Positions 1,165 through 20,561 of a stretch of 37,692 nucleotides of DNA are shown piece by piece. Under the pieces are notes generated by a model. That model did no database searches. It was given only the letters and a program-made list of their open reading frames with translations, and was not told the origin of the DNA. The translations under genes and the position numbers were made by a program. This stretch comes from a virus (taxonomy: Duplodnaviria; Heunggongvirae; Uroviricota; Caudoviricetes). The stretch is from the IMG/VR virus record IMGVR_UViG_2645727775_000019, positions 1 to 37,692 of that record, one strand, 5' to 3'. How positions within the stretch are numbered: the first letter of the stretch is position 1; each line of letters begins with the position of its first letter.

Positions 1165-1554
1165 CTACATCACAGGGCAATCATCAAACTCACCAGAACG
1201 CGCATCATTGATGATGTACGTTATCACCCCAAACAAATGCGACTCATCATCAAACAGGCTGGTCGGCTTTGGTATCTCCTCTACCGCTCCAGTCTCAAGA
1301 TTAATCAGATGTGGTTTAGGGTAGCGCTTGTATCGCTTCACTCTGAACTCATTGTCAACTGAACAAATCAGCAACGAGCCATCAAACGGCATCAGTGAAC
1401 TGTCAACGACGAGCAAAGCACCGTACATGATGCCTTCTCGCCAGTACGTTTTCCCTGACCGCATGAAGTACGTTGCCGATGGTTTGCTGATTAACGTCTC
1501 GTCGAGCGATATGCGTTGCTCAACGTAGTCTGCAGCCGGACTCGGGAATCCCAT
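1165..1554 (-). CDS. UmuD'-like (HumD-like) S24-fold protein, starting at the position of the UmuD self-cleavage site
   Basis: 129 aa beginning MGFPSPAADYVEQRI, matching UmuD from Gly25 onward (recalled sequence); true ATG start; the GDSM nucleophile motif reads GKTY here. Confidence 0.75.
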   Translation of the reverse strand: MGFPSPAADYVEQRISLDETLISKPSATYFMRSGKTYWREGIMYGALLVVDSSLMPFDGSLLICSVDNEFRVKRYKRYPKPHLINLETGAVEEIPKPTSLFDDESHLFGVITYIINDARSGEFDDCPVM

Positions 1555-1573
1555 GATGCACCTCAGTCATCAA

Positions 1574-1593
1574 TACTGGATAAAATCACAGTA
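1574..1593. promoter_or_regulatory. LexA (SOS) box overlapping the promoter of the UmuD'-like gene
   Basis: Plus-strand TACTGGATAAAATCACAGTA fits TACTG-N10-CAGTA; lies ~20 nt upstream of the minus-strand ATG and overlaps a TATACT -10-like hexamer. Confidence 0.6.
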
Positions 1594-1971
1594 TAAATGC
1601 TCTATATCAAATCAGCAAAGGAATAGGATAAGAATCTTTGCTGAACCGGTCTATATCATGAGACCCTTTGCAGGTTTACCAGAAAAAACCTTAGGTTTTA
1701 ATGAGCTAACAAAACGTGTCCTCCTAATCATTCTGGGTGCAAAGGTTAAGTTAATTCCTATGAATGAAATTCATGAAACAGTGCAAGTACAAGATGATAA
1801 AGAAGGTCTGCCATGAGTGCTTAAGGATGTGTTTGAATAATCCGCTATGCGTATGACATCCCTGGCTAAGGATAGTTCGCCATGTAGAGTTGTAGAATTG
1901 ATACAGGCTACCAGCATAATATCCAACGATAGCCTGCTCCGTATGTAGACATTATCTATATATAGATCCAC

Positions 1972-2946
1972 CTAAGTATATATTTTTGAGTTTGGTAATG
2001 CCTTCCTGAGCGCTTTAAAAACTATTGAAAGTACGTATTTATATACGTATGCAAAAATACAAACAATTACAACAAACAAGACGGATTTTATCCCATCTGA
2101 ACTTATAAACGATAATAAATGGTATGCTTTCATCAAAAACATGAATTCTATAAGATACATCTCGTAAGATAGTATGCCAATAAATTTCAATGGTGTTATG
2201 TTTATATTTGCAACTCTAAGAATCGATGTAATTCCAATTATAAGAAATGCGCTTGCTATATTTGTTGCTGCATAGTCAAAAAAACTAACATCAATCCCTT
2301 TATAAAAATAAAGGGATAAAATTAAGGACACCAAAGAAACTATGACAAACAAAAGTAATATCCATTTATCTATTGCATATCCTTTGACTTTTTCATACAC
2401 CACTCCAATTAGTGAACCTAGTGGAAATGCAGCAACGTATAGTCCGGCCCCTGCTGGAGGAGGGAATATATCTGCGTTTTTGTAAAGCAATACAGAAAAA
2501 AGGAAAAGGAAGGCTATTTTAATATTAATAGAGATATTAGCGCTAAAAATTAGAAAAAAAGCCAGATACCATATTATTATAAAAGATATATACCACATAC
2601 TAGGATCTATAGTGGCATTCAAATCAATGCCTAGTATGGTAATCGCTAAATGATAAAAGTCATCATTTGTAATTGCTGGATGTCCAAAAGCAATAATCCA
2701 AACAATGGTTATAATAGCGTATGGAACAAGTACTTTTGATAGCCTTTTTGAAAAAAAAGAATCCAACCCTGATTTAATGTAAGATTGCACAAGGCCAAAG
2801 CCTGACAGCATAAGGAATAGAGCAACACCATATGCCCCGGCGTGCGGGATTACATTTACATGCCCAAGCATGACAAGGAGAATAGCAACGCCTTTTAGTT
2901 CAATGGTGTGATCTCTATCAAAAATTACATTACTTATTTTTCTCAT
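1972..2946 (-). CDS. Acyltransferase family 3 integral membrane protein (O-antigen/LPS O-acetyltransferase-like), probable lysogenic conversion gene
   Basis: Multi-TM protein with N-terminal RKISNVIFDRDHTIELKGVAILLVMLGH motif typical of acyltransferase_3; very AT-rich compared with flanks; start taken at internal Met MRKISN. Confidence 0.75.
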   Translation of the reverse strand: MRKISNVIFDRDHTIELKGVAILLVMLGHVNVIPHAGAYGVALFLMLSGFGLVQSYIKSGLDSFFSKRLSKVLVPYAIITIVWIIAFGHPAITNDDFYHLAITILGIDLNATIDPSMWYISFIIIWYLAFFLIFSANISINIKIAFLFLFSVLLYKNADIFPPPAGAGLYVAAFPLGSLIGVVYEKVKGYAIDKWILLLFVIVSLVSLILSLYFYKGIDVSFFDYAATNIASAFLIIGITSILRVANINITPLKFIGILSYEMYLIEFMFLMKAYHLLSFISSDGIKSVLFVVIVCIFAYVYKYVLSIVFKALRKALPNSKIYT

Positions 2947-3149
2947 TTCATGACTACCTGCGCAGTTTTTCATTGCTAATGAATGTTGCATACTTTACAA
3001 AAGTATACTATACAGTATTTGCGTTGTCATTGAATATAAATATACCTGCGGCAGAATCATTATTGAGGAGGCCATAGCAGTGGATAATTCATCCACTGCC
3101 TAGTGCATATATCAATCGCATGATTGTATTTTTGACAAACCTGATTTAG

Positions 3150-3582: not shown

Positions 3583-4374
3583 TTAATACCCTACTGCAAT
3601 ATAAAAAACTGATTCACCAGCGTCCTGAGAACCTACCCCCGGAACGCCAGACCAGGCTTTGTTAATGAATGCAAAACCGGTATTACTCAGATCAGATGCT
3701 CTGTACATCGGGCTGAACATCCAGTAGTTGGCTACATATGTTTGTCCGAAAACAATGCCATAGCACTGATTTGTAAATGGCGTAGAAAATAATTTTCCAC
3801 CAGTACCAGCGATAGTCCCGAATCGCATCTGGAACCCATTCGGGAAATTAATTCCGCCTGCCGGTGAAGACCAGTAAGACATATCAGGTATTTGCCCAGC
3901 ACTATTTCCCACGTTTTTTGTTGCAACGGTTCCTAACCCAAGATTAGCTCTTGCATCAGATTTATTTGTTAACTCATAAAGATTATTTTCCTTTTGAAGT
4001 GCTCCTGTTATGCGTAAATCATCACCAGCGGCAACGGTTCCGACTGTCGTGCCCACATCCCTTTTCGCCGCTTCTCCTAAACCAAGGTTTTCGAGAGCCG
4101 TTTGCACAGTGCCATCCGATTTGATATCGCCAAACGGATTCTTGCGGCTTAACAGCAGCGCACGAAGTGCGGTAAGCAGCTGGTCATGCCGCCCTTTCTC
4201 CAGGCTGGCACCGGAGGCCTCCACCACGCTACAAAGTTCTTCCTGCAACATGTCAAAGTAGTCATCATCCAGATCGGTGGCAGGCGTGCCAGTCTGGGGG
4301 TTACCACGGGTAAAACCGTTCTTACCCGCGCCGAACTTATCCTTCTGCGCGGTTTTCGTGTCTATACGATGCAT
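3583..4374 (-). CDS. Tail fiber protein (short, 263 aa)
   Basis: N-terminal [21 protein letters not shown] and repeated ANLGLG-type fiber motifs; position just upstream of Tfa. Confidence 0.75.
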
Positions 4375-4377
4375 GGA

Positions 4378-4962
4378 TTACTCCGGATATTTAAAAATTA
4401 CGTAGGTATGCGAAGGGCAGAGTTTGTTAAGCACGCACTCGACAACGGTGTCGCCCCAGATACGCAGTGCGGAATCACAGGGATCGCCACATGTCATCCA
4501 GGTGGTGTTGGTGGCGGCTGGCATGTTGACCTGCCAGTAATACCGCCATTCCGGCGCATTCACCGCGTCAGTACAGGCCGATGAGCAGGTGAACGTGCTT
4601 TTATCGTATCGCGTGATAGTGGCGTCTGGTCTGCCCAGGGCAGCAAGCTGTGCAAGGTAAAAATCCTCATTGATGCCGCCCGCCAGATTAACCTTCGCAT
4701 CCAGCCGTTGCTGACGCTGGCGAAGGGTCTGTGTCCCTGCGGGAATACATTCATCCGGCAGACCGCACAGACGCTCCCAGCGGTTTATCAGTTCAGTGGT
4801 GGTGCGCGGATCCAGCTCCCGCATCAGGGCATCCGCACGCTGATGAACACGGGTTAATGACGGTGCCGCACCTGCAATCGCCGGATCGCTGGCTGACCAC
4901 GCCGGACCGGGCGGCAGCAGTGTCGACAACAGACGGATGTAATCATCGTTTGTCACGTCCAT
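4378..4962 (-). CDS. Mu gp48-like / YmfQ-like tail protein (DUF2313-type)
   Basis: 194 aa; position after baseplate J-like gene; resemblance to YmfQ-type tail proteins. Confidence 0.65.
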
Positions 4963-6011
4963 GAAATCGTCCCCAGAACCGCCAGTTCATTTTTTGCAAT
5001 GGAGATATTGTCCGCCGGTGCAAGCAACTGATGGCTGTATTCCCCGTTCGCACCGGAAATCGCTTCACTGATACGTGACACCTTCAGTTCTCCCTGCGGA
5101 TAACCATCACGCAGCAGGAACGAACGCAACTCGGCGGTGATGGCAGCCCGTATTTCCGGTGTGTCCGGCGTCACGCGGATATGAAAATCCACTTTATGCG
5201 CCACCGGCCTGAACACATACAAATCAGAGCCTGCCACCGGGGCCAGTGGCCAGATATGTTGTCTTGCCGCCGTTTCCGTTGATTCTTCCGGAATGGGATT
5301 AATCAGGTCACTGCTGGCAATCATCACACCGACAGTTCCCGTTCCCATCCAGTGACGGTATGTCCATGCGCGGGTAATGCCGGGCACTTCTTTAGCCCAG
5401 ACGACATAGTCCCCGTCAGCCCCGCCCTGCGGCGTCCAGTAATACCGCTCAATGACGCGGGCGCGCCACGTTTCCAGATCTTCAGTATCGAATCCGCCAG
5501 TCAGGGTATCTGCAACACCGGAAGACGGCAGACCATTCACCGGCGTGACCAGGATTAATGCCGTACCGTCGTCAGCGTTACCGACCGCGCCTGTAGTTGA
5601 GCAAGTGATCGGCACACGCAGGACACCACCGGAGCTGGTTGCATCGGCAGTTGCCGTGTACTGAACCAGGTCATCGCGCTGAATCACGCTCCCGGCAGTC
5701 ACCTTCAGGCCATCGCTGACACCTTCCCAGCGCATATACCCGCTGGCAGCCGTGGCCCCCTTGCGCGGACACCGTTTCATCGCAGCATGTCGCGCCAGCC
5801 AGGACTCATCGCACAGGTCAGGCAGCATATTCATTGCCAGATAATCGATGTACCCGTAAACCGTATGCAGCGCCGCCGCATACACCTTTGCCCGCACGTC
5901 TTCATCCATGCGCCGGAGCGTGTCGCTGACGTCCAGCCTGGCGAATAAATCGTTACGGAGCATACTGATATTTTCTGCCAGCGTCGGGCGCTGAAATTCA
6001 CTGTCCGCCAT
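4953..6011 (-). CDS. Baseplate J-like protein (Mu gp47-like)
   Basis: 352 aa; synteny with gp45/gp46-like genes; baseplate J family resemblance. Confidence 0.8.
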
Positions 6012-6426
6012 GCGTTATCGCACTCCACAGATCATCAAAAGAAATCATTACCGGTCCGTCACGACGCCAGAGAGTGATACTGTTACCCAGCTCATTAATC
6101 CCGGTGCGGCGGATATCCAGATCAATACGGGACACCACGCCGTCATCAATCATCCATTGCAGGCATTCGCGGATATACCCCCTTACCGTCTGCACCAGCT
6201 GATTGGTCAGTTTGCTGCGCTGAAGCAGCCACAGTCGGGAGCCGTAACGGTCATTCTGTACCGCAGGCCAGGTATCCCCCCACCATCCCATCGGGACGTC
6301 GGCGTTGTCATCAGGCTCCGCCCGCCGCCAGGTGAACAGGGAAATCACCACGGCGCGGGTCAGCGGATCCAGCGGTGCGCTGGCGCAGGTGCGTTTACCG
6401 TTCACCGTCAGCCACAGTTCCATCAT
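5998..6426 (-). CDS. Mu gp46-like baseplate protein
   Basis: 142 aa; between baseplate V-like and J-like genes. Confidence 0.7.
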   Translation of the reverse strand: MMELWLTVNGKRTCASAPLDPLTRAVVISLFTWRRAEPDDNADVPMGWWGDTWPAVQNDRYGSRLWLLQRSKLTNQLVQTVRGYIRECLQWMIDDGVVSRIDLDIRRTGINELGNSITLWRRDGPVMISFDDLWSAITHGGQ

Positions 6427-6971
6427 GCCTCCATCGCTTTATCAGGTTTGTCGGTGTTACTGCCCTGACCGTTCTCTCTGTGACGATGCCCGTTATAGGC
6501 AAGCCGCATCGCTGACATGGTGGTGCCGCCGGAGTCGCACAGGTCTTTCACCTGTCCTGTCACTTCCAGGTCCATTTCAAAACGTGCTTTAGGTGAATTG
6601 CGAAACGTGATCGTTTTACCTGCACCGTCCACCACGATCCCCTCCCGGGTCAGCGTCACGGACTGCCCCTGATCGTCATAGACAGCCACCTCACCCGTCT
6701 GCAGCCCTTTCAGGCGGTAGCGCCGGTCCGACACCGTAACAACCACCGCATGAGAACGGTCGCCATCCGGAAACAACACCACCGCTTCCGCACCGCTGTT
6801 TGCCCTTGCGGTAAAACCGTAGGGTTCAAGATGTTCAACCCCGGCTTTGGGTTCACCGGCAATCAGAGACACATCCACGGTCTGACATTTCGTGGCGGCA
6901 CTGATGCTTTTCACCACTGCCCGCCCAATCAGGCCGAGGAGTTGTCGCTGCATGGCTTCAATCGTCCTCAT
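6423..6971 (-). CDS. Baseplate assembly protein V / spike (Mu gp45-like)
   Basis: 182 aa; 4-nt overlap with downstream gene; family resemblance. Confidence 0.75.
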   Translation of the reverse strand: MRTIEAMQRQLLGLIGRAVVKSISAATKCQTVDVSLIAGEPKAGVEHLEPYGFTARANSGAEAVVLFPDGDRSHAVVVTVSDRRYRLKGLQTGEVAVYDDQGQSVTLTREGIVVDGAGKTITFRNSPKARFEMDLEVTGQVKDLCDSGGTTMSAMRLAYNGHRHRENGQGSNTDKPDKAMEA

Positions 6972-8050
6972 CAGAACGGGTCCTCCTGTACTCTGGCTTT
7001 TTTCTTTTTCCGCGCGCCGGGGGCTTCGGGTTCAGGCAGATAAGCATCAGGTGGGCCGACACGGATTTCCGTCAGGGTGCCGTTCTGGTCCTGAGTAAAC
7101 GTGACTTCCGAAACAAGCAGTTCGGTATTGTCGAAACCACAGACCGGATCAAAGACAATCACCCGCTGGTTGGGCTGCCACAGCGTACCGTTACCCTGTC
7201 GCCAGCCCTGCACCACATAGGTGGTTTCATCCGTCCGCGCCGCCCGTTGTCGGGCTTCAAAGTCCGCACGGGCAATACAGCCTGCCCCCGTAGCCTGCCC
7301 TGTCTGCCTGATATACATCGGACGGTAACGGGCAATAAATGCATCCTCTGTGCGGGCCCGCAGCGCGGTGGTGGTGGCCTCACCGAAATCATCATCGTTT
7401 CCGGCACGCTGCCCCGCCACCTGGTAAACTGAAAACCGCTCCCGGATACTCTTCTCCGTATCACAGGAAAGGATGTTTTCCCCAAGTACCAGCGCGGTAT
7501 GTGCCCGCGTTGAGCCAATACCGCCAATCACCAGCCTGCCGTGCGGGTCGTCGTAAGCCAGTGCCTGCTGCTGACCGAGTATTTTGTTGATTACCTCAAT
7601 CACCGTTTCACCGTGATCAGGCTGGACATCAGGAATAACACCCGACGGCGCACCGCTGTTCACCACCTCAATGCCGAAAGGCGCAGCAAGCGCCTGCGCA
7701 ATCTGTACCAGCGATCGTCCGTTAAACTGTGTCGGTTCGGCTGCACAGTCAATCAGGTCAGCGGTCAGACTGCGTCCGGCAATACCGGTGCTGACCGAAC
7801 GGGCATCGTAACGAACGGGCGTCGCCTCCACCCAGCCGGTGATCACCAGCTCATCACCAATCAGCACCTCCACTTTTGAACCGTTTTTAATGCGCGGCTG
7901 AAGCGTGGTAATCCCCTCATCTCCCGGCCACTGGCGGGTGATCTCCACACTGAAATCCCGCGCCAGCCGTTCAATACCGGCACCGATGCGCACTGATGTC
8001 CAGCCATTCCACTCCCGGCCATTTACCCGTAGCGTGACATTGTCGTTCAT
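6971..8050 (-). CDS. Mu P-like tail/baseplate hub protein (late control D family)
   Basis: 359 aa; follows DNA circulation protein as in Mu-like tail modules. Confidence 0.75.
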   Translation of the reverse strand: MNDNVTLRVNGREWNGWTSVRIGAGIERLARDFSVEITRQWPGDEGITTLQPRIKNGSKVEVLIGDELVITGWVEATPVRYDARSVSTGIAGRSLTADLIDCAAEPTQFNGRSLVQIAQALAAPFGIEVVNSGAPSGVIPDVQPDHGETVIEVINKILGQQQALAYDDPHGRLVIGGIGSTRAHTALVLGENILSCDTEKSIRERFSVYQVAGQRAGNDDDFGEATTTALRARTEDAFIARYRPMYIRQTGQATGAGCIARADFEARQRAARTDETTYVVQGWRQGNGTLWQPNQRVIVFDPVCGFDNTELLVSEVTFTQDQNGTLTEIRVGPPDAYLPEPEAPGARKKKKARVQEDPF

Positions 8051-9423
8051 TGCACTGGCACCTTCAGAGGGATCACCGGCACAAAGCCGGGATGCGTAAT
8101 GGCATTACGCCGGATAATGTCCGCGTCACGCGCCGCGTTATCAAACCAGGCCGCCGCCAGCACCAGCGCGGGTAAAACCTCATCCGGTGTGCGCTGAATG
8201 ATCCGTGCAGACTGTTCAAGGCGCGTGTTGATATCCGCATTCAGATCTGCTTTCACCCGGCGCAGCGCCAGAAACAGCGCATCACTGGTTGTACGGGACA
8301 ACTCCTTATCAATTGCCGTATTCAGTGTGTCGCGAATGTCGGTCAGTTCTTCCCACGTCGGCAGGTCAACCGTGTTTTTCACCGCCGGTGCATTGTTCAG
8401 TGCCGGATGCGTGACGGAAGGCCAGCAAGTGCTCTGCGCAGGTGTTGTTGCCTGCCCCACTGCGGCATTCTGCATCACCGCGGAAGTTGTTAGCGCAGGC
8501 AATCGGGTGACGGCATACGCCGCTTCGCTGATTGCGGTCGTACGAAGGGTGCTGGCAACCACGTTACGCTGCTGCGTCGCCGTGGCGGTGGTTTTACTGT
8601 CCGTTTTCCAGACGCCGCGCGGTTGCAGATCGCTGCCGAGGCTGACACCGGAAAGCGTTTTGATCATGGTGACCAGGTCGCTGGCGTTACCATAAAGGCG
8701 TTTCCCGGTACGCCACATTTTCTGCACCTGCTCAACGAAATTTTTGCCTGACGATGGCGGCGGCAGAAGTACCGAGATATCCCCCTGCAACAGCCTGGCG
8801 GCATCCGATACGGCAGAATCCACCACTTTCATCGCATCAGAAACATACCCCAGCATTATGCTGGCATTACCGATAACGTCGTTCTGCACGAAATCCGCCA
8901 CACCATCGATACTGAAACCGCTGAAGCTGTCACTGATGCAGTCATCCAGTGCAGAACAGGATGACATCAGCGTCTGCGCCGTCGCCGCACCTGATGTGGG
9001 GTAAGAGAGTTCTCCCGCTTCGACAAACTTCAGGTCAAAGCGGACAATACGCCCTTCACTCTTCGATGTGCTGACCCGAACTTCTCCGTCAACACAGACT
9101 TTCAGCTCACCGTATGTCGGATGGACAAGCGTGCCGGGACCGGGTTTATTCAGCGCGTCAATCAGGCGATCGCGCTGGTCAAAGCAGTCATCTCCCACCA
9201 CATAAGCCGTGATGGACGGGCGAAAAGTGATTTTCCCCAGGTCTTCGGTATAGGGTTTGTCGCGGTTCGGGTATTCATGTGTTTCCACACGGCGACCGGT
9301 TCCCGCACTTTCTTCTTCAACCTTAAACGGCACGCCGCGAAATGACGCGTCCTGGAGTCTGTCACGCCAGCCTGAAGACGACGAAAGTAATGAAGGTCGG
9401 GTGGGAAATGAGGATAAATCCAT
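8047..9423 (-). CDS. Mu N-like DNA circulation protein
   Basis: 458 aa; N-terminal domain resembles Mu gpN DNA circularisation protein; directly downstream of tape measure. Confidence 0.75.
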   Translation of the reverse strand: MDLSSFPTRPSLLSSSSGWRDRLQDASFRGVPFKVEEESAGTGRRVETHEYPNRDKPYTEDLGKITFRPSITAYVVGDDCFDQRDRLIDALNKPGPGTLVHPTYGELKVCVDGEVRVSTSKSEGRIVRFDLKFVEAGELSYPTSGAATAQTLMSSCSALDDCISDSFSGFSIDGVADFVQNDVIGNASIMLGYVSDAMKVVDSAVSDAARLLQGDISVLLPPPSSGKNFVEQVQKMWRTGKRLYGNASDLVTMIKTLSGVSLGSDLQPRGVWKTDSKTTATATQQRNVVASTLRTTAISEAAYAVTRLPALTTSAVMQNAAVGQATTPAQSTCWPSVTHPALNNAPAVKNTVDLPTWEELTDIRDTLNTAIDKELSRTTSDALFLALRRVKADLNADINTRLEQSARIIQRTPDEVLPALVLAAAWFDNAARDADIIRRNAITHPGFVPVIPLKVPVQ

Positions 9424-9447
9424 AGACTGACCTCAAAAAGGACTGCG

Positions 9448-11355
9448 TTATCGTGGAAAACGAAAAGGGGAATACCCCACATCGTGCGTGATTTTCATCA
9501 GGGGATCGGCTTTGCCCGGTACATCAATTATCTTCATACCTGGCGGAGCATTCTCGAACGTGACTTTCAGCTCGCTGTGCTGTGTCATGGAAGAAGATGG
9601 ATTCAACAGCGGAACATTGGGTTTGTACTGGCTCAGGCTGGCCTGATACTGCTCGTACTCTTTACGATCAAAAAAAGGCGTCCAGTCTGAAGCCAGAAAC
9701 AGCCCTTTATTATCCAGCCAGTTAACCGTATCTTCAGGAACAACACTTTCCAGAGTATCTTTAACCGGCTCATACATCAGGGTTCCCAAAAAACCATATA
9801 CCCCGGCCTTCCCGATAAAGCCGCGGCCTTTCCCCATCAATCCCGTTTCTGCCGATACCTTCCCCAGCGTACGCATCTCTCTGGTCACTGCGGTAATGGA
9901 TTTGGTAACGTCAGCAACCCATTTGGTTGCCATAAACAGGGCAATCGCTTTCAGAACAGTTTCCCATCCCCCCATCACCTGCGCCGTTTCATCCACCACG
10001 TGCCAGACTTTTTTTATGACAGGGCCTACGGTTTCCCAGTTATCAATAATGAGGTAAGCGCCACCAACCAGAAGAGCAATCAGCCCCTTAGCAGGCGTCA
10101 TATTCATCACACCGCCGAGAACTTTCATGATTCTGGACAAAGAGCCTGCAGCGGCCCCCACTGTCAGTAAAGCCAGACCGATTTTAGCAATGGTCTTAAC
10201 GAGCTCCGGGTTTTCACGGACAAACGTTCTCACTTCCTCAAGGAGCGGTTTTACCGCTTCAAGACCATCATTAACCTCAGGAAGAAACGTTTCCCCCAGC
10301 GTGGAAGAAATGGCATCAAGTTGATTTTGCAGAAGTAAAAGCTGGTTTTCCGTCGTCGCTGCCCTCGAAGCATATTCCTTCTGCATCGAACTGCCATACT
10401 GCTGGGAATCCGCAACCCGCCTGAAGTTGGTACGCAACAAATCAAGGTTAGTCAGCAGAGGTGCTATCGCGCCCAGAGACTCTTTCCCGAACAGGGCATT
10501 CAGCACAGCTGCCTGTTTTTCTTTAGGCACTTTAGCCATCGCATCCAGTACAGACAGTATGGTGCCCCGGGCATCTTTCTGCATATCAGCAGCTAATTTC
10601 TTCGGATTGATCCGCAGAAAACGCAATGCCTGTTTCTGCGATTTTGTCGCAGAATTTCCCGCGGTCAGGGAAAGCATGAAGTTCTTGATCCCTGTGGCGG
10701 CAATTTCTGACTCCACGCCCATCCCGGCAATGGTTGCCCCCATTGCCGCGATTTCGCCGGAAGCCACACCTGCAACACCACCTAAAGGACCAATACGCGT
10801 AACAATATCGGAGATTTTCTTCGCGTTCGCCGGGCCGGTATTACCAAGGTAGTTGATTTTGTCAGCCAGCCCGGCCACTTCATCCTGCGTCATATTAAAC
10901 GCAGTACGCCACTGGGCCATCATCTGCCCGGACTCTTCAGCCGTGGTATCAAAGGCCACGCCCATCTTCACCGCATCAGTGGCAAACTGCATCAGTTCAT
11001 CACGTGCAATCCCGGCCTGACCGCCAGCCGCCACAATTTCCGCGATCCCGTCTGCAGACATGGGAAGCTCAGTAGACAAAGCGCGTACCTGCTCCGTCAT
11101 GGCCTTAAACGCATCCGGCGTATCCAGACCGTCCACCACTTTGCGGACATCAGCCATCTTCGATTCAAGGGTGATGGCTGATTTTACAGGGAGTGCCAGT
11201 GCCCCCATTATTGCAGTACCCGCCCCGGCAGCGCCCAGAGCAAGGCTGGAGACTTCTTTCTGAAACCCCTTAAGCTGACGCTGCATACCTTTAAGCGGGC
11301 CGGACAGCCTGTCAACAGCGGTGATGATGGCTTTCAGCTGAAAATTATCAGCCAT
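9448..11355 (-). CDS. Tail tape measure protein
   Basis: 635 aa, Ala/Gly-rich helical protein with hydrophobic segment; downstream of sheath-tube-chaperone. Confidence 0.85.
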   Translation of the reverse strand: MADNFQLKAIITAVDRLSGPLKGMQRQLKGFQKEVSSLALGAAGAGTAIMGALALPVKSAITLESKMADVRKVVDGLDTPDAFKAMTEQVRALSTELPMSADGIAEIVAAGGQAGIARDELMQFATDAVKMGVAFDTTAEESGQMMAQWRTAFNMTQDEVAGLADKINYLGNTGPANAKKISDIVTRIGPLGGVAGVASGEIAAMGATIAGMGVESEIAATGIKNFMLSLTAGNSATKSQKQALRFLRINPKKLAADMQKDARGTILSVLDAMAKVPKEKQAAVLNALFGKESLGAIAPLLTNLDLLRTNFRRVADSQQYGSSMQKEYASRAATTENQLLLLQNQLDAISSTLGETFLPEVNDGLEAVKPLLEEVRTFVRENPELVKTIAKIGLALLTVGAAAGSLSRIMKVLGGVMNMTPAKGLIALLVGGAYLIIDNWETVGPVIKKVWHVVDETAQVMGGWETVLKAIALFMATKWVADVTKSITAVTREMRTLGKVSAETGLMGKGRGFIGKAGVYGFLGTLMYEPVKDTLESVVPEDTVNWLDNKGLFLASDWTPFFDRKEYEQYQASLSQYKPNVPLLNPSSSMTQHSELKVTFENAPPGMKIIDVPGKADPLMKITHDVGYSPFRFPR

Positions 11356-11439
11356 GCTTCATCTCCTCATTTATACGGACAGCCTCTGCCTCCAGATCAG
11401 CAAAGTGGGAAATAGCCGTCCGGCGAAGTTCAAGGGGGT

Positions 11440-11763
11440 TTAATTTCCAGAACCACGCGACATTGTAGAATCGCTTCCGGAGCTCTCTTCCGTCTCCAAG
11501 CCGGTAAAAAAACGCATTACAATCATGCCTGCCTTGAAAATATCCAGCTTCGTCATCTGCGCTGCAGACGAGCGCGGGATCCCGGCCAGAAGCGGGATAT
11601 ATTTCAGCGCCACCTGACTGTCCATTTTCATACCACCATCAGGCGAAACAGAGAAAGGGAACCCCAGCGCCTCAATCTCGTCATACGTAGGCTCACGTAT
11701 TTCCAGCACATGCAGTGTTTCTTTGTGGGCGATGATCGGTTTTTTAAGTACAAGCTCAATCAC
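11440..11763 (-). CDS. Tail assembly chaperone (P2 gpE / Mu-like)
   Basis: 107 aa between tube and tape measure; T-run slippery site near 3' end (see findings). Confidence 0.6.
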   Translation of the reverse strand: MIELVLKKPIIAHKETLHVLEIREPTYDEIEALGFPFSVSPDGGMKMDSQVALKYIPLLAGIPRSSAAQMTKLDIFKAGMIVMRFFTGLETEESSGSDSTMSRGSGN

Positions 11764-12116
11764 TGGTAATCCCCTTCTTCACCGTGGAACTCAAGATCAA
11801 CCGTGCCTTCTTCGGCATTATGGTTCGCTTCGCCGTGCAGCCAGGCAGACGACAATACATAGACCTGACCGTTCGCCAGCTCGGCAGTGATGGTCATCTC
11901 ATCAGACGAGGTGATTTTGTTCACCGGAAAATTCTTCGGCACCTTGAAAGTCCCTTTGACATAAGGCGCACGGTGAGTTTCCTTGCGGTCCACTGAACCG
12001 TCCAGGCCGATGATGTCATCATTGACCGTCCTGTTCATGGGCACCTCAATGCCGCCGGTCAGCGATAGCTGTTGACCGTCAATTTTGAAATAACAGGTTC
12101 CCCCGATACGGGCCAT
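11760..12116 (-). CDS. Tail tube protein
   Basis: 118 aa immediately downstream of sheath gene with 4-nt overlap. Confidence 0.75.
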   Translation of the reverse strand: MARIGGTCYFKIDGQQLSLTGGIEVPMNRTVNDDIIGLDGSVDRKETHRAPYVKGTFKVPKNFPVNKITSSDEMTITAELANGQVYVLSSAWLHGEANHNAEEGTVDLEFHGEEGDYQ

Positions 12117-13609
12117 TATGCAGACTCCTCTGAATACTGAAGACGGAACTGGTTAACCACGGCAAAGACACGCAACTGGTTAACATAGTCAGGCGGGAAC
12201 AGCGTGTTCAGGCGGTTCGGATCGCTGGCATCACGCTCCACAACCAGGTACTGCTTAAACAGTTCGTAGTTTTCCACGATCCCCGCACGCTCAAGCTGAC
12301 GGTAGGTTGCCAGCAATTCCCCTTTGATCACCGCCGGTGTGACAATCGCCTGACCGGGACCAAAGCGGGTACCGTCGCTGGCAAGCTTGTGACGCCCGTA
12401 CTTACTGGTAATGACGGATTTCAGTTTGCGCAGCACATACGCGCTGGTATGCAGCGTCTCGCTGTCGAGGTAGCTGTTATCCGCAACACCGTAAGCGTTT
12501 TTCCTGTACGTGGTGACATCACGCTGAATGCGCAGCACCCCGCTTTCGACATACGCCGTTGCCACGCCATGAGACAGCAGGGTCTGTTGTTCGGTCATCG
12601 TGAACCGTTTCCCCTTCGGCGCAGGCAGCATACCCACCAGCTCACCGGTCTGCGTGGGACGTGCCGGATCGTTGCGAATAAACACCGCTGCGCGGGCGGT
12701 ACGGCTTGCCGCCAGCTCGTCGGCAGGCGTCTGGGTCTCTTTTTCGTATCCCGCCAGGGTAATGTGCTGCTGGTTAAACTGGTCACCTGCGGTCACCAGT
12801 TCTGACAGCGTGCCGATCTTTGCCGTATACACATGACCATACAGCTGACGCGCATAGCTCCAGCGACCGCTGGTATCGTTCATCTCGGTCACCAGCGTGT
12901 TAACGGAGGCCGTGTCGTTGAACGGCAGGCCGATATAATCAAACGGCTCATCCGCCATTGCAGCCACCGCGCCGGTGAGAACCGGAGCACCCGTTCCGGC
13001 GGTACCCGTCGCCACGGCAATCTGTACGCCCGCTGGCAGCACTTCGCCCCCACCAAAGCCGTAGTAATTGAGGCTGACAGGAATTTCATTCCCGCAAAGC
13101 CCCTTATGACGCGCGGTCAGTGTGACCACGCCTGCCGAAGATGAGGCAGTAAACGGCAGGGTCGGAACGGCATTGATGGCATCCTGGATACTGCTGGCAA
13201 TCGTCGCAACGTTATCGCCGTTGGTCACCGGTGCCTGCACGCGGGTACGTCCCACATAAACATTCACCGTGCCGCTTTCGGTTGCTTCCCCGGTCACCGT
13301 CAGCGTAACCGTTGCCGCCGCGCCTGTGGCTTCCGGAACGGCAATCACATACAGCTCACCAAACGGGTCGGTCTGGCGATAAGCCTCGACCATACGCGCC
13401 AGCTGACTTCCCGCACCACAAATCTGGCGTGCATAGTCTGCCGATGGCATCAGCACCAGACTGTTGGCAACAATCTCTGCACCGTTATTGGCATGACCAA
13501 TCAGCAGCGATGCTCCGCTGTCCTGTGCAGTATTCGCCGCCGAGTTATCCATTTCCGCATAAAAAATCGGAACCAGCGTATTTGACGGAATGGTGTTAAA
13601 GCTCGTCAT
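12116..13609 (-). CDS. Contractile tail sheath protein (Mu gpL-like)
   Basis: 497 aa; sheath family resemblance; AGGTG ribosome binding site upstream. Confidence 0.9.
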   Translation of the reverse strand: MTSFNTIPSNTLVPIFYAEMDNSAANTAQDSGASLLIGHANNGAEIVANSLVLMPSADYARQICGAGSQLARMVEAYRQTDPFGELYVIAVPEATGAAATVTLTVTGEATESGTVNVYVGRTRVQAPVTNGDNVATIASSIQDAINAVPTLPFTASSSAGVVTLTARHKGLCGNEIPVSLNYYGFGGGEVLPAGVQIAVATGTAGTGAPVLTGAVAAMADEPFDYIGLPFNDTASVNTLVTEMNDTSGRWSYARQLYGHVYTAKIGTLSELVTAGDQFNQQHITLAGYEKETQTPADELAASRTARAAVFIRNDPARPTQTGELVGMLPAPKGKRFTMTEQQTLLSHGVATAYVESGVLRIQRDVTTYRKNAYGVADNSYLDSETLHTSAYVLRKLKSVITSKYGRHKLASDGTRFGPGQAIVTPAVIKGELLATYRQLERAGIVENYELFKQYLVVERDASDPNRLNTLFPPDYVNQLRVFAVVNQFRLQYSEESA

Positions 13610-13771
13610 CGGTATTCACCTTTTCATTCACGCGCCGGATATCACCCGCTGCTTCACGGCGCAGCCAGTAGTTGTTCTCATCAACATTTCGCCCCTCGGC
13701 GGGCAAAAGGTCTCCGCGGGCAGGGTCAGGCACTGACCGCCCTTTAACAGGTTTCACAAACATGAAGATTC

Positions 13772-14332
13772 TCAGGAAGGAAGGGTTATTTCGGTGTGAT
13801 GTTCGATATCGCCGTCAGGCCCGTTACCGGGATCGAGATAATCAACATCAATCGCCAGCGTTCGCAGTTCATCCAGACTGTTCAGGTCATCCTGCTGGCG
13901 GGTATCGTCTTCGGTCAGCTCGCTGATGACCGAAAAATCGAACTGATAAATCAGCTCATGACGATTCAGATCCAGCAGCGTGCCGCCGTCATAGGTAATC
14001 GGGTTACCGCACGCTTCCGGGTTCCAGCCCAGCAGGGCCTTAAAGAGCATCTGCCGGACATCGTCCACCACATCATACGAGGCAAACTGACCGCGCTCAT
14101 CACGCCCGTTACTCAGTATGACAACCACGGAGAAGCCCTCTTTCAGCTCCTGCCAGTAGTCGGTCTGGCTTTTGTTTTCTCCCGGAGAGTCATCACCCGG
14201 TACCACATACGCCGCCGGGAGTCTCAGCTTTCCGACCTCCGGCAGATTTTTGAACTGTGCCGCGCCTGCCACCCGGTTTTCAAAATACGGGCAGCGGGCA
14301 CGCAGCGCAGCAATAACAGGCGTCAGTTTCAT
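13772..14332 (-). CDS. Tail terminator / tail completion protein (Mu gp37-like)
   Basis: 186 aa between head-completion genes and sheath. Confidence 0.55.
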   Translation of the reverse strand: MKLTPVIAALRARCPYFENRVAGAAQFKNLPEVGKLRLPAAYVVPGDDSPGENKSQTDYWQELKEGFSVVVILSNGRDERGQFASYDVVDDVRQMLFKALLGWNPEACGNPITYDGGTLLDLNRHELIYQFDFSVISELTEDDTRQQDDLNSLDELRTLAIDVDYLDPGNGPDGDIEHHTEITLPS

Positions 14333-14835
14333 CTGCGTCGTCGCTCCGGCTTCAGTGATTTACGTAATTCCCTCGCCAGAAAATAGCGTGTCCAGCTGCG
14401 GTTCTTTTCAAGAGTTTCCACCATAAAGTTATTACGTGGAGCCAGCCGCCAGCCGCTGCCACCAGATGCACCACGATGATGACTACGACGACGTTTTGCT
14501 CCTCCCCGGACACCAAAAAACAGAAACGCCGGATAGAAGTCACCAGAGATCATCCGGTTCCCCTTCCCGTTGCGCTGGTTAGGGGCAATGCGTGTCATAA
14601 AACCGGCTCGCTTTTTACTGGCTCTCGGCACCATGTAACCAATCGAACGAGCCAGGCGTCCGGTCTGATAACCGGGGTTTTCACCCGGTGCCGACCGCGC
14701 ACGGCGCATCACCAGCCGACGGGCATCACGCATATGACGCTGCCCAATCGTGACAAACGCCCGCCGGACACGGGCGCGGTTAAAGCGCATCTCCGCGGGC
14801 TGCTGAACATCAACGTGAAAAAAGGGAGTCGCCAT
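14329..14835 (-). CDS. HK97 gp10-family virion morphogenesis protein
   Basis: 168 aa, basic N-terminus; synteny. Confidence 0.65.
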   Translation of the reverse strand: MATPFFHVDVQQPAEMRFNRARVRRAFVTIGQRHMRDARRLVMRRARSAPGENPGYQTGRLARSIGYMVPRASKKRAGFMTRIAPNQRNGKGNRMISGDFYPAFLFFGVRGGAKRRRSHHRGASGGSGWRLAPRNNFMVETLEKNRSWTRYFLARELRKSLKPERRRR

Positions 14836-15220
14836 TGCTGCCTCCGTGACTCTGCGTAAATTCGCCCAGTTCCGTACACTCCAGCAGCAGAAAGCGCCGC
14901 GCCCCGTTCAGATCGCGCTGACGTTTCACCCGGTACACACTGTCATCACAGACCACCTCATAATCAGCAGTGATCCCGCGGCGGTAGCGAATGGTGATGT
15001 AATGGGTGATGGCATCTCCGGTCTGCGCGGTTTCCTGCCAGGTGGTGGCACTGGTCTGGATAACCTTCGCCCATGCCCGGAACGCAACCGGGTATTGAGG
15101 CTCCACGCCAAAGTTATCCGCGGGCATATCCACCCGCTGGCGGATCAGGACGCGTTTATTCAGTTCGCCGGGGTCCGGCAGTATGTAGGTTGCGCTGGTC
15201 TGCGCCTGACGAATTTTCAT
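14810..15220 (-). CDS. Head closure / head-tail adaptor protein
   Basis: 136 aa following connector gene. Confidence 0.65.
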   Translation of the reverse strand: MKIRQAQTSATYILPDPGELNKRVLIRQRVDMPADNFGVEPQYPVAFRAWAKVIQTSATTWQETAQTGDAITHYITIRYRRGITADYEVVCDDSVYRVKRQRDLNGARRFLLLECTELGEFTQSHGGSNGDSLFSR

Positions 15221-15540
15221 AGTGGTATAAGGCGATAAGGAGCAACCAACCAGTTAAAACTCATTGGCAACTCCATTTTCTCAACGTCTGTAACCGTTGA
15301 GCGGTTTTCGTAGAAATGGCTGACAAGTAGCAGAAGCGCCAGCTTCACATCATCAGATATCACAAGCCCATCAGGATCATCCGCAGGCCTGTCATCTGCG
15401 GTTGCATACAACTTACGGTTAAGGAAGTTTTCCGTACGACTCTGAGCGGCCTTACCAAGCAGTTCAAGCAACTCATCTTCATCAGAGAAATCATCATCCA
15501 GACGGAGCTGAAGCTTAATCTCTTCCATTTTTAACAGCAT
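15217..15540 (-). CDS. Head-tail connector (gp6-like)
   Basis: Start chosen at ATG (MLLKMEEIK) 7 nt after an AGGAGG site; acidic protein. Confidence 0.65.
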   Translation of the reverse strand: MLLKMEEIKLQLRLDDDFSDEDELLELLGKAAQSRTENFLNRKLYATADDRPADDPDGLVISDDVKLALLLLVSHFYENRSTVTDVEKMELPMSFNWLVAPYRLIPL

Positions 15541-15550
15541 AAAACCTCCT

Positions 15551-15592
15551 GTGCCCGCCAGAACGCGGGCACAAAAAAACCGCATTACGCGG
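15551..15592 (-). terminator. Two hairpins, one with a U-run, downstream of the major capsid gene (partial intrinsic terminator)
   Basis: Minus strand reads CCGCGTAATGCGG followed by TTTTTTT, then GTGCCCGCGTTCTGGCGGGCAC, then AGGAGG and the connector ATG. Confidence 0.55.
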
Positions 15593-15618
15593 CGTGCTGT
15601 ATTACGTAAAAAGACTAA

Positions 15619-16848
15619 TCAACCACCAACGCTACCTTTCCCCACCAGCGCTTTAATGGCAGAGGTGTCTTCCAGGATACAGTCAAAACGATGGAAGGCC
15701 AGAAAACCGGTCTGATCATATTCCGCGTAACGCTCAACCAGACGTTTAAGAATCATGTATCGCACACGACGGATAATGAAGCGATCAAAGTCACCACAGA
15801 ACATGAATTTTTTACCCGCCCCGATATCATCAATTTCCTGATCAATGACATACGGTACATTCAACACTGAAGCAGGTGCCACACCAACAATATCCGGCAA
15901 CCATAAAGGGCGTCCCTGACCGTCTTCCATCTCACTGATCAGTTTCAGCGTATTATCGTTAAACGCCAGGCGGAATTTCGGTCCGCGACGATATGCAGGA
16001 TCAATGCTGTGTTTCAGAGCCAGAATTTCCTGCCACTTCACCGTATTTGCCGCGGCAGTCTGTGTTGTGCCGGTCACAGATGCGACCAGCCCTTTGGGTT
16101 GTTTAGGCGTACCAGCACCCGTCCCCTGAATCAGATAACGGGCTTCACCACGACCAATACGTTCAGCAATGCGACGGGCAAGATAAGCTTCCATATCGAT
16201 CGCGCTGTCCTGCAGCAACTCATTAGACACACGAATGATTTTCGATGTCATTTTGAGCGCCCCAAGACTTCCCATACCGAAATCGGTGTCTTCTTCACCG
16301 GCTTCTTCATTTTCGCCCAGCAGAACACCAACTTCGGAAGTACCATCAGCTGTTGCCCACTCCATGGTGTGACCGTCAGAAGTGGTCAGAATCTGCGCCA
16401 CACTGGCGATGCCACCGTAGGATTTCATCTTCTCAACAACTTTCGCCAGGAATGTTTCTGGTACGGTATATCCGCCCTTTTCATCCTGAGCTACACCCTG
16501 GGCACGAAGTTCACGCAACGCCTTTCGCTCTTCTGATGTCAGCTCACTGGCACCGTGACGCATCCACTTATCAAAAACCTGAGCTCGTTTCTCATCCTGT
16601 TGCGAATTGTTTTCCGGATCAAGATTCTGACGCTGCTCTTCCTCATTGCTTTCAATGTACGCCTGATCCTGACGACGCAGTTCTTCTTCGCGTGCAATTC
16701 GTTCATCAAGCGCTTCCAGTTCGGATTTTGCTTTGTTCCACTCAGTGCGCTGCTCTTCCGTCCATGCGTTATCACCAATTTTTTCATTCAGGGCGCGCAT
16801 GTCAGTTGCGATAGTATTACGTTTCTGTTTCAGTTCATGCAGTTTCAT
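15619..16848 (-). CDS. Major capsid protein, HK97 fold, with N-terminal coiled-coil delta domain
   Basis: 409 aa; charged coiled-coil N-terminus then capsid domain; AAGGAAA ribosome binding site. Confidence 0.9.
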   Translation of the reverse strand: MKLHELKQKRNTIATDMRALNEKIGDNAWTEEQRTEWNKAKSELEALDERIAREEELRRQDQAYIESNEEEQRQNLDPENNSQQDEKRAQVFDKWMRHGASELTSEERKALRELRAQGVAQDEKGGYTVPETFLAKVVEKMKSYGGIASVAQILTTSDGHTMEWATADGTSEVGVLLGENEEAGEEDTDFGMGSLGALKMTSKIIRVSNELLQDSAIDMEAYLARRIAERIGRGEARYLIQGTGAGTPKQPKGLVASVTGTTQTAAANTVKWQEILALKHSIDPAYRRGPKFRLAFNDNTLKLISEMEDGQGRPLWLPDIVGVAPASVLNVPYVIDQEIDDIGAGKKFMFCGDFDRFIIRRVRYMILKRLVERYAEYDQTGFLAFHRFDCILEDTSAIKALVGKGSVGG

Positions 16849-16858
16849 GATGTTTCCT

Positions 16859-17461
16859 TTACGCGTTAAGAAGGGTCAGGACGCGTTCACGCGCCATACG
16901 TTGATTAATGGCTTTCTGTAGCGCGCCGCTGTTGCGCGCCTCCTGCCATGCTTTCATGGAGCGAACAGCCGAGTCAGCTTCCTGATAGGCAGGATATGTC
17001 ACAGGACTGACATCCAGCAGACGGGAAAAGCGGGTTATCTCGCGAATAACAACCCCGTCCTCATCCTGATACCACTCTTCACCGTCACGGGCGACACGGA
17101 AAGCGAAAGATGACTGGTTAATATCTCCACGTTGCATCGGGGCCAGCACTAGATCACGAATGGTCTGTGTCTCCGGAGCCTGGATGTCATAGCGTAATCC
17201 GCGCTCATCAACTGAAAGATTCAGCGTGCCTGCTGCACTACGCCCAAGAATAAAATTAGGATCGTGGTTAAACAGTGCGCGTACATCATCACCAAGCACA
17301 TCGTCAAAAGCGCCGGGCCGGATGATTTCGCGGAATGAACCGAATATCAGCTCAGAACGACAGTCAAACACCGATCCATAACCGATAATGTGCGCCGGGT
17401 TATCGTCATGCCTCTCAGCACGCACCTCACCGCTGTAACAACGGATTTCACGGTCATTCAT
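16859..17461 (-). CDS. Prohead protease (HK97 family)
   Basis: Start at MNDREIR with GAGGGA site; ORF-track start at 17518 would overlap the portal gene by 64 nt. Confidence 0.8.
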   Translation of the reverse strand: MNDREIRCYSGEVRAERHDDNPAHIIGYGSVFDCRSELIFGSFREIIRPGAFDDVLGDDVRALFNHDPNFILGRSAAGTLNLSVDERGLRYDIQAPETQTIRDLVLAPMQRGDINQSSFAFRVARDGEEWYQDEDGVVIREITRFSRLLDVSPVTYPAYQEADSAVRSMKAWQEARNSGALQKAINQRMARERVLTLLNA

Positions 17462-18680
17462 TGGTTTTTCCCTCATCGTTTTTTGGGGGCTTAAAATCTC
17501 CTGCCGGGTTAGCAGCATTCACGCTTACCAGCATCTCGTCCAGCCCTTCAACCGGATTCATATCCTCGAATGCGCGGGCCTCATTACGGCTCATCCATCC
17601 ATCGGTAATAGCGAAGTGATAGAATTGTGCGCGCTCCTGCGGAGTTCCGCGTAAAAGCCCCGTCAGATTGAACCTGACGTAATACCCGGCGGCTAACTCA
17701 GCGCGGGTAAACAAGCGACGGTTAAGCTCCTGCTCCCAGTTCGTCACCCACGGCATCATCGTGTAGCGGACAAACTGAATCGCCTGCGCAGAAATATTGG
17801 AGAAAGTGGCTTTTTCGAGGTCATTAATCATGTGCGCAGGAATATTGAAAATACCGGCGATCATTGAACGGTTCAGCTTCATCATGTCAATGATCTGAGC
17901 GTCAACTGGCGACACAGTCAGTGCCTTGTAATCCAGATCGGCTGGCAGCAGCATGGTTTTGTTTTCCTGGCGGCGTAACGCCTGCGATGCCTTCTGCCAC
18001 TGATCTTTAAGCCAGCCCCAGCTTTCCTTATTGAGTCCGCTTTTAACGGATACTATCCCCGCCGGACGGGCATTACCGCTGAAGAAGCTTTCTGTGTACT
18101 TCTGACCGCTCATCCCCATGCCTATTGTTTCGGCATGTTGCATAATCGGACTCAGCCCCATCTTCTGATTATTACCCAGCGCACGGATGTGGATCATATC
18201 GTCCGGACTGATCGCAAACGCCCCATATTCGTTGTACAAACCGTAGGTATATCGGCCACCAGTATTCATCAGCGTCGTTTCCCACGGCATACAGCAATCC
18301 AGGGATATGACTTCACCGCGACGATTACGTTTCACCCAGGTATACCCATTCCCCCAGCCAAGGATGTGACGTTGCTTCAGTTCGCGCCATTTGTAGCTGG
18401 TTTGCCAGGTATTGGGCTCATCATGAACCAGATAAAACGCCGGATGATCGCGTGCGGGTTCAACCTTCCCCTTGTGCCTGCGCATAACATGCAACGGCAT
18501 CTGGGCAAGGCTGGAAGACAGGACATAGATACAGGAATACACCGCAGCCAGTTTCATCGCAGTCTCAGGACTGACATAAACGTCTGCCCGGAACAGCCCA
18601 TCAGTATCAACGGCATCACCGGTTATCGGGGTGGAAGGATTCTCCAGTGATTTACTTCTGAACAGAGCATCAAGCAGCAC
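17454..18680 (-). CDS. Portal protein (HK97 family)
   Basis: Probable GTG start giving (M)[16 protein letters not shown]; the longer ORF-track start (18728) lies inside the upstream small ORF. Confidence 0.8.
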   Translation of the reverse strand: MLLDALFRSKSLENPSTPITGDAVDTDGLFRADVYVSPETAMKLAAVYSCIYVLSSSLAQMPLHVMRRHKGKVEPARDHPAFYLVHDEPNTWQTSYKWRELKQRHILGWGNGYTWVKRNRRGEVISLDCCMPWETTLMNTGGRYTYGLYNEYGAFAISPDDMIHIRALGNNQKMGLSPIMQHAETIGMGMSGQKYTESFFSGNARPAGIVSVKSGLNKESWGWLKDQWQKASQALRRQENKTMLLPADLDYKALTVSPVDAQIIDMMKLNRSMIAGIFNIPAHMINDLEKATFSNISAQAIQFVRYTMMPWVTNWEQELNRRLFTRAELAAGYYVRFNLTGLLRGTPQERAQFYHFAITDGWMSRNEARAFEDMNPVEGLDEMLVSVNAANPAGDFKPPKNDEGKTNE

Positions 18681-18831
18681 GCGCCCCCCTTCTGGCCATA
18701 GCCAGTGCGCCCACCAGCAGTAAAGCACCGGACAAAATCAGAGCCGGAGCCATACCAAACTGCAGGTAAACCCCGCACGTAAGCAGGCCAAAACCAGCCA
18801 GCCCGATAACATCAGCAATTAGTGATTTCAT
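18670..18831 (-). CDS. Small hydrophobic protein (53 aa) between terminase large subunit and portal
   Basis: ATG overlaps terL stop as ATGA; translation [53 protein letters not shown]; below ORF-track length cut-off. Confidence 0.4.
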
Positions 18832-20561
18832 AGAATTAAGAGATCATCGTCCGGATCAAGAGATGAGAGGAAATCGTCAGGTTCTTTGAGCATTGCCCGA
18901 CCGATCGTCATAATCAGTGCAACCGCACCATCGATTTTGTTTTCCGCCTGCTCCTTGACGGGCTTCACTAAATCATCGTTACCTGGCATGTTTTTGCCGA
19001 CCACATTGCCGATACACCAGGTCATGATGGGATTGCCGTCATGATGAAAGCGTCCCGATTCAATCGCTGCCTCCAGCTCTTTCATCGGGTCGGACATATT
19101 GGCGAAGTTCTGGACGATAGTGACGGGATTCAGGTCTTCATCAGCAAGGTCATGTGACAACCCGGTCGCCCCGAAGGGGTCGATGGGTGACTCACTGACC
19201 GGGCTGATTTTGTTCGCCGCTTTGGCCTCTTCGAGGATGTAGCGATAATCCACCTCCGCACCATCGGTAACGGTCAGAACGCCCATTTCCACCCATTTCT
19301 GAAAACGTTCGGCTGTCCGGCGATCTTCATTTTTCTCGACGCTGTACACCGTGTCATACGGTACCCAGAAACGCGGGGCCACACTGTAGTAATGCGTTTT
19401 ACCGTCAATCTCGCGGGTATAAAGTCGCGCCATACTGTTCATATCCAGCTTACGCGCCAGGTCAAAAGCCAGAATGCACGGCTGCCCCTCGAACTGCTCA
19501 AGGGTCAGTGATTTATCCTCGCAGCTCTGCCAGCTCACCAGGTTGAAATACGCCGAACGCGCCGACACCCAGATATTGAGGTGTTTTGTTTTAAAGACGT
19601 TTGCCAGACGGGCGTTATTTTTCGCACGCTGCTGCTGACTTAACAAAAATTCGCGATAAACCGACACGCCAATATTTGGATTGGCTTTTTCCAGCACCTG
19701 CGGGTCGGTCCAGTCATCGCCTTCGTCAACGGTATAGATGATCCCGAACAGTTCATCGTTGGGTACCGACCCGTTGAGCATCTCGATAACTTCCCGTCGC
19801 TTGTCGTAGCACGGCCCCTCAATGTTGTACCCGGCAGTAGTAATGGCCCACATCAGTGGCTGACGTCGCGCCCCCATCCCGGTAAGCATCGTGGTGTAAA
19901 GCGCATCGGTGGCGTGCTCGTGATATTCATCCACCACCGCACAGTGGGGTGATGAACCATCACCGGGGTTACCGATCAGCGGTTCAAACCGCGCGCCATC
20001 CTCCGGACGATTCATGTTTGAGGCGTTAACCTCAATCCCGAACGCTTCCGTCAGCATGGGTGTGCGTTTACACATCAGTCGCGCCGGGCGAAAGACTTCC
20101 CACGCCTGTTTCTCTGTCGTGGCACCGGAATACACTTCCGCGCCAAACTCGTTATCACAGGCAAAACAATACAGGGCAACACCGGCAGAGATTGCCGATT
20201 TGCCGTTCTTACGGGGGATTTCGGTATACACCTCCCGGAAGCGGCGCAGCCGGGACCCTTTATTGACCCAGCCAAACGCACAGCAGACCACAAATAGCTG
20301 CCACGGCTCCAGCGTGATGGGCATCCTCTTGAATGCCCACTCACCCTTGGTGTGCGGCAACAGCTGAATAAATTTGGCGGCCCGTTCAGCCAGGTCCTTG
20401 TCGAAGCGGTAACGAAACGACTTACTTTTTTCCGCCATCAGGTCATCAAGATGGCGCTGGCAGGCCTGAATCACAAACTGGCAGGCCACAATCTTTCCCC
20501 GCACGACATCACGGGCATACTGATTGGCAGCATTTACGTTGGGGTAAGATTTCCGGCTCAT
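18828..20561 (-). CDS. Terminase large subunit
   Basis: 577 aa; ATPase and nuclease regions; ATGA overlap with terS. Confidence 0.9.

Follow-up and report, generated by a model that had tools for sequence, protein, structure and literature searches.

The window, by which we mean the whole stretch of 37,692 nucleotides (37.7 kb) that was analyzed, contains a mosaic prophage. Positions 4057-20000 are ~98% identical to the structural genes of the Shigella/E. coli phage SfV and its relatives (SfIV, SfII), yet the integrase is of the IntS type, the insertion lies at the argW site next to yfdC and the SfV gtr cluster is missing. The genes are arranged in the order integrase (1-1158, at the start of the window and adjoining humD), humD, acyltransferase, tail-fibre assembly gene and Mu-like baseplate genes. 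Further along, a full-length match to the Rfam family of the Hfq-binding sRNA isrJ is found at 23766-23839 on the minus strand (64.9 bits for a gathering score of 37).

The acyltransferase gene (1972-2991, minus strand; PHROG 3333) encodes an Acyl_transf_3 or O-acetyltransferase-like membrane protein, probably an O-antigen acetylase that converts the serotype. It fills a cargo slot, between humD and the gene for tail-fibre assembly, that in related loci is occupied by acyltransferases of other kinds (MBOAT, hexapeptide-repeat). The same arrangement is found in all six loci listed with the exact HumD protein, beside homologues of yfdC, mlaA and fadL, i.e., at the E. coli argW site; on draft contigs these homologues were recognized by their Pfam domains and by comparison with the genes named at this site in the E. 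coli locus L003. Among E. coli complete genomes, no match covering 80% of positions 1100-1700 was found, and the best match to this segment is 87% identical and lies at the same intS/argW site. In this SfV-like prophage, which occupies the argW site of E. coli, humD is accessory cargo located at the integrase end, and no UmuC homologue was found in the 37.7 kb window.

The HumD-family gene and its start codon

The humD-family coding sequence occupies 1165..1554 on the minus strand (129 amino acids plus the stop codon at 1165-1167) and was characterized from the ORF list, from NCBIfam, Pfam, PDB and PHROG comparisons and from dN/dS. The NCBIfam equivalog model NF051876 (NF051876.1), named "HumD family translesion DNA polymerase," matches positions 1-129 of 129 with 217.8 bits for a cut-off of 120; the Pfam match is Peptidase_S24, and PHROG 811 (UmuD-like protein) is matched at 1.4e-45. 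The best PDB matches are UmuD' (1umu, E = 1.8e-21, and 1i4v) and then UmuD, G2 being placed on residue 1 of UmuD', which is Gly25 of UmuD. In direct alignments, the protein is 86% identical to a homologue from an E. coli prophage inserted at the same site of the chromosome, 65% to N15 gp26, 63% to P1 HumD and 43% to UmuD. An initial annotation, made from the sequence alone, had proposed a UmuD'-like protein resembling P1 HumD and had suggested alignment to UmuD and HumD as a check; the equivalog score and these identities agree with the proposal, and the protein is indeed related to UmuD.

The exact protein sequence is present on 19 public contigs, where the ORF is intact and full length, and intact full-length ORFs are also found in hundreds of clusters. 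Records of proteins 97-98% identical to it exist for Citrobacter sedlakii and E. coli, several under the HumD family name, while the label "LexA family transcriptional regulator" carried by near-identical proteins is a misnomer. A repressor of the LexA/CI type was considered and rejected, given a length of only 129 amino acids, the absence of an N-terminal DNA-binding domain and a score of 28.4 bits with the LexA model TIGR00498 (cut-off 110.95), of which only the C-terminal domain is matched. A self-cleaving UmuD was likewise rejected: the protein has neither the N-terminal arm nor a Cys/Ala-Gly site, it lacks the Ser nucleophile in a GDSM-type motif, and it scores 86.7 bits with the NCBIfam UmuD subfamily model PRK10276, under the cut-off of 110. 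Judged by its sequence, the gene is an ordinary member of the HumD family and displays all the sequence-level features of membership, namely the equivalog score, a start equivalent to Gly25, an orphan position on a prophage without umuC and a LexA operator directly upstream. The AlphaFold2 model built on the 113-sequence family alignment has low confidence (mean pLDDT 47, pTM 0.33) because this alignment holds close relatives only, and the fold is assigned by homology to the sequences of the UmuD' crystal structures.

The product of the minus-strand ORF begins M-GFPSPAADYVEQR; in the ORF list, its sequence opens MGFPSPAADYVEQRISLDET... (MGFPSPAADYVEQRISLDETLISKPSATYFMRSGKTYWREG...). When aligned, the M-GFPSP start falls on C24-G25FPSP of UmuD, that is, on the Cys24/Gly25 cleavage point. 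Translation of the minus strand over 1495-1650 gives ...IQY, two stops and LRCI-MGFPSP in frame: the frame is shut by two TGA codons (1567..1572, minus strand) located 5-6 codons ahead of the ATG, and none of the codons between this pair and the ATG is a start. The short N-terminus is therefore real and not an annotation artefact, and a longer form with a Cys-Gly site cannot be made. The initial annotation had the protein begin at the residue of the UmuD cleavage product, as it does, G2 lying on UmuD Gly25; the upstream in-frame start with a Cys-Gly site, which it had named as the sign of an artefact, is absent, its place being taken by the two TGA codons. A Shine-Dalgarno sequence, GAGGTG, can be read 4 nt ahead of the ATG (1559..1564, minus strand), and the same or a similar motif occupies the matching place in P1, in the E. 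coli homologue and in Hafnia phage yong1. On the gene strand, the order upstream is ...TTTGCTGATTTGATATAGAGCATTTA-TACTGTGATTTTATCCAGTA-TTGATGACTGAGGTGCATC-ATG.

The LexA box, the candidate promoter and homologous loci

The LexA (SOS) box TACTGTGATTTTATCCAGTA lies 19 nt before the ATG (1574..1593, minus strand; 1593-1574 in the direction of the gene). Within the 37.7 kb window, TACTGT-N9-CAGTA is matched exactly at this place only, and when the window was shuffled 100 times with its dinucleotides preserved, no exact match arose. Looser patterns are not enriched over the whole window, a LexA pattern with 2 mismatches being found 10 times for 5.2 expected and CTGT-N9-CAG showing no significant excess. 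The box TACTGGATAAAATCACAGTA of the initial annotation, for which no strand was named, is the plus-strand reading of the same positions, and it was rightly called well formed: it is exact, unique in the window and spaced as in P1 humD.

The further claim that the box overlaps the promoter is upheld in part. A candidate sigma-70 promoter can be discerned by eye at 1590..1618 on the minus strand, with a -35 element TTGCTG (1618-1613), a 17-nt spacer and a -10 element TATACT (1595-1590) that overlaps the first bases of the box; this candidate agrees with the consensus at 8/12 positions, which is under the threshold of the consensus promoter scan, and the scan called nothing over 1000-2100. An alternative promoter, also picked out by eye on the minus strand, consists of TTGATA (1610-1605) and a TG-extended GATTTT (1587-1582). 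The overlap of the LexA box with the humD promoter is what we infer from such elements. Upstream, the acyltransferase gene shares the strand of humD and no terminator is predicted between the two, so that some LexA-independent read-through into humD is possible.

humD has been termed a LexA-regulated SOS gene (PMC9603915). The P1 record contains a "LexA binding site in the regulatory region of lxr and humD" that ends 19 nt before the humD ATG, a spacing equal to that of the window gene, and a lexA site is annotated ahead of Gp23 in phiKO2. Thirteen distinct loci with a pre-truncated gene were compared, namely the window, the E. coli homologue (L003), P1, N15, phiKO2, HK140, BTP1 and six further loci (Hafnia phage yong1, Aeromonas phage pAEv1818, Pantoea phage G19, L018/L019, L020/L021, and L022). 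A CTG-N10-CAG box with good flanks is found 14-44 nt before the start codon in 12 of them, the lone locus without a box being HK140, whose humD-type gene is second in an operon. In the loci L018 and L019 (about 3930-4000), an identical HumD protein is encoded behind unrelated upstream genes, and the two sequences become identical precisely from the LexA box onwards, which indicates that a recombination junction lies there and that box and gene travel as one cassette.

The surroundings of the gene differ between phages. P1 HumD, of the same NF051876 family, also has 129 amino acids and starts MGFPSPAADYVE at the UmuD' N-terminus, and neither gene has an adjacent umuC; however, humD of P1, a plasmid prophage, is found beside phd-doc and divergent from lxr, whereas the window humD is situated between the integrase gene and the O-acetyltransferase-like gene of an integrated SfV-like prophage. 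N15 gp26 and phiKO2 Gp23 (62% identical to the window protein) are pre-truncated UmuD-like proteins of linear plasmid prophages and both genes have a LexA box upstream, but they adjoin partition genes, and in phiKO2 the box is 44 nt upstream with a divergent dinI. In Salmonella phage BTP1 (L012, 401-773), the reading frame of the humD homologue is broken by a stop after 28 codons, and tblastn matches this pseudogene in two pieces; the LexA box 17 nt upstream of it, TACTGTATTAATATACAGTA, is still perfect. The BTP1 record has a hypothetical protein over this pseudogene, on the other strand.

In the window, an ORF of 87 amino acids (1553-1816, plus strand) is divergent from humD and spans both its start and the LexA box, and gene callers in public assemblies place an 86- or 52-aa gene there. 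This ORF has no PHROG match and is probably spurious; that it could be a genuine LexA target in the manner of P1 lxr was considered and rejected, owing to the missing PHROG match and to an upstream neighbor that is not conserved among the loci. Were the box nevertheless to serve a divergent gene comparable to P1 lxr or phiKO2 dinI, humD could be regarded as a decaying, functionless remnant. While the BTP1 pseudogene with its intact box and the divergent 86-87-aa ORF over the box are compatible with such a view, a dN/dS of 0.17 relative to the 86%-identical E. coli homologue indicates purifying selection on humD, which is full length on the 19 contigs and in hundreds of clusters. Moreover, the 87-aa ORF belongs to no PHROG family, and it is the neighbor that varies by locus while box and humD are constant, so that the remnant hypothesis appears extremely improbable.

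Active-site positions and the C-terminal tail

With E. coli UmuD and UmuD', the window protein has in common the C-terminal domain (43% identity), the UmuD' N-terminus, the equivalent of Lys97 and LexA control. Unlike UmuD, it has no N-terminal arm, no Cys-Gly site and no umuC operon; it has Thr for Ser60 and 10 to 11 additional residues at the C-terminus. In the alignments, the Ser60 motif SGDSM of UmuD corresponds to SGKTYW, with Thr36 (codon ACG, 1447..1449, minus strand) at the nucleophile position, and the general base Lys97 corresponds to Lys73 (codon AAG, 1336..1338, minus strand). The replacement of Ser in GKTY and the retention of Lys had both been read correctly in the initial annotation. 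Lys73 is invariant in the direct alignment of the window protein with P1 HumD, N15 gp26, the E. coli homologue and UmuD. At the nucleophile position, N15 gp26 resembles the window protein in having Thr (GATHY), whereas P1 HumD keeps Ser (ADSHH). Among 121 close relatives, this column contains Thr in 79, Ser in 39, Ala in 2 and Met in 1, and the Lys column contains Lys in 119. The active site is thus altered as had been claimed, but the alteration is not peculiar to this gene, Thr being the majority residue of the HumD family (79/121).

A wider comparison was made by searching 1.84 billion representatives at 50% identity and sorting the full-coverage matches according to how many residues precede the Gly25 column. 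Ser is kept in 56 of the 69 clusters with a long N-terminus, and Lys and an Ala/Cys-Gly site in 59 each. The 45 pre-truncated clusters, which start with M-G, have Ser in 8 and Thr in 13, the rest being scattered (Ala, Tyr, His, Gly, Asp, and others), and at the Lys position 20 of them have Lys, 14 Arg and 4 Cys. The nucleophile region reads GQAM in Aeromonas phage pAEv1818 and PDYCQS in Hafnia phage yong1. With no cleavage site left, selection on the Ser-Lys dyad would be relaxed, which accounts for Thr36 and is supported by the family comparison. On these sequences, the decay of the dyad is a matter of relaxed selection rather than a special adaptation of the window gene, while the hydroxyl and the Lys kept in the close HumD clade allow a slight chance that some structural or catalytic role persists. 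Because the exchange of Ser for Thr preserves a hydroxyl, the loss of peptidase activity in the window protein is something that we infer rather than a demonstrated property.

It can be hypothesized from the same residues that Thr36 and Lys73 are catalytic and that HumD acts as a protease in trans, for instance on host UmuD, LexA or a phage repressor presented on RecA filaments. Intermolecular cleavage is known for UmuD-like proteins, and a hydroxyl residue and the Lys are present in 118 and 119 of the 121 close-family members, respectively. However, both dyad residues are lost in more distant pre-truncated homologues, the GDSM motif is rewritten to GKTYW, and in peptidases with a Ser-Lys dyad, Thr generally replaces Ser poorly; a role as a trans-acting protease is accordingly considered very unlikely.

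The C-terminal tail NDARSGEFDDCPVM (residues 116-129; 1168..1209, minus strand), defined by alignment and conservation, is specific to HumD. This acidic tail (SGEFDDCPVM at its end) is absent from UmuD, whose sequence ends ...VVKAMR, and the conserved tail NDARSGEFDDCPV(M/I) is common to the window protein and P1 HumD. In an alignment of 113 relatives, the tail is the best-conserved stretch of the HumD family, with positions at least 90% conserved. Variants are found in distant pre-truncated homologues (GEFDDTPF, SEFDDNPCM, CEWDDLPVI), and the motif occurs in only one of 74 long-N-terminus proteins, being almost confined to the pre-truncated class. The C-terminal tip of E. coli SSB, ...MDFDDDIPF in the sequence from PDB 1eqq, bears a loose likeness to this tail. 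A conceivable but rather improbable role would thus be that of an interaction peptide that mimics the acidic tip of SSB and recruits HumD to SSB-binding partners or to SSB-coated DNA. If true, the tail would give phage UmuD' proteins a recruitment route that host UmuD' lacks, and it might also make up for the absent N-terminal arm. No mention of this idea was found in the searchable literature, a body of texts that does not include the 1999 HumD paper. Strongly conserved as it is, the tail plays no part in the best explanation of the gene.

Proposed action in the lysogen and significance

The best explanation, which we hold to be probable, is that the gene encodes a LexA-controlled, pre-truncated HumD that partners host UmuC and is carried as cargo by an SfV-like prophage at argW. 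In an undamaged lysogen, host LexA would keep humD off by binding to the box, which overlaps the likely -10/start region. Following DNA damage, RecA would become active, LexA would cleave itself and humD would be transcribed. The product would be made already truncated: since methionine aminopeptidase removes an initiator Met that precedes Gly, the sequence predicts an N-terminus GFPSP... equal to that of the UmuD' generated by RecA-assisted cleavage. HumD would in this manner skip the slow processing of UmuD to UmuD' and would not need RecA-assisted cleavage. It would then dimerize and join UmuC in a Pol V-like translesion polymerase sooner than the host could achieve by its own pathway, this UmuC being presumably that of the host because the prophage carries no umuC. 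The outcome would be more damage tolerance and more mutagenesis for host and prophage DNA alike. LexA binding, dimerization and the binding of UmuC and RecA are attributed to the window protein by analogy with P1 HumD, to which it is 63% identical. The replacement of UmuD' function is known only for P1 HumD, and the window protein may be expected to share it on the same grounds.

Conversely, the protein might modulate or antagonize the host by forming mixed dimers with UmuD or UmuD', or by titrating UmuC or RecA filaments, so that host Pol V activity or the UmuD2C checkpoint would be damped or re-timed for the phage. A conserved dimer-forming UmuD' core, a family-specific tail that is missing from UmuD and an orphan gene without umuC would all fit such an antagonist. 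However, no sequence feature argues for inhibition, and P1 HumD is described, in passages of two papers, as complementing UmuD' function and facilitating SOS mutagenesis (PMC7092418, PMC4713147, citing J Bacteriol 181:7005 of 1999). Antagonism is for these reasons thought unlikely, and all three rival explanations (antagonist, trans-acting protease and functionless remnant) are less well supported than that of a HumD carried as prophage cargo. As for how much such a HumD contributes, P1 HumD in the work of McLenigan in 1999 reportedly complemented well only from a high-copy plasmid and had low steady-state levels, so that the physiological contribution may be small.

The HumD family, its pre-truncated form and its control by LexA are already described and curated, the family has an experimental foundation, and the window gene is in this sense already known. 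The logic of a LexA-controlled, pre-activated UmuD' is said to have been worked out for P1 in 1999, and standard annotation with the HumD model of PGAP would name the gene correctly, which leaves it little weight as a discovery. With regard to the family, the decay of the Ser-Lys dyad after the loss of the cleavage site provides a tidy example of relaxed selection. Several types of temperate phages (P1-like, N15-like, lambdoid, P22-like, and SfV-like) carry a portable cassette consisting of a LexA box and humD. With it, the post-translational brake that the host puts on Pol V can be circumvented, which bears on stress-induced mutagenesis in lysogens.
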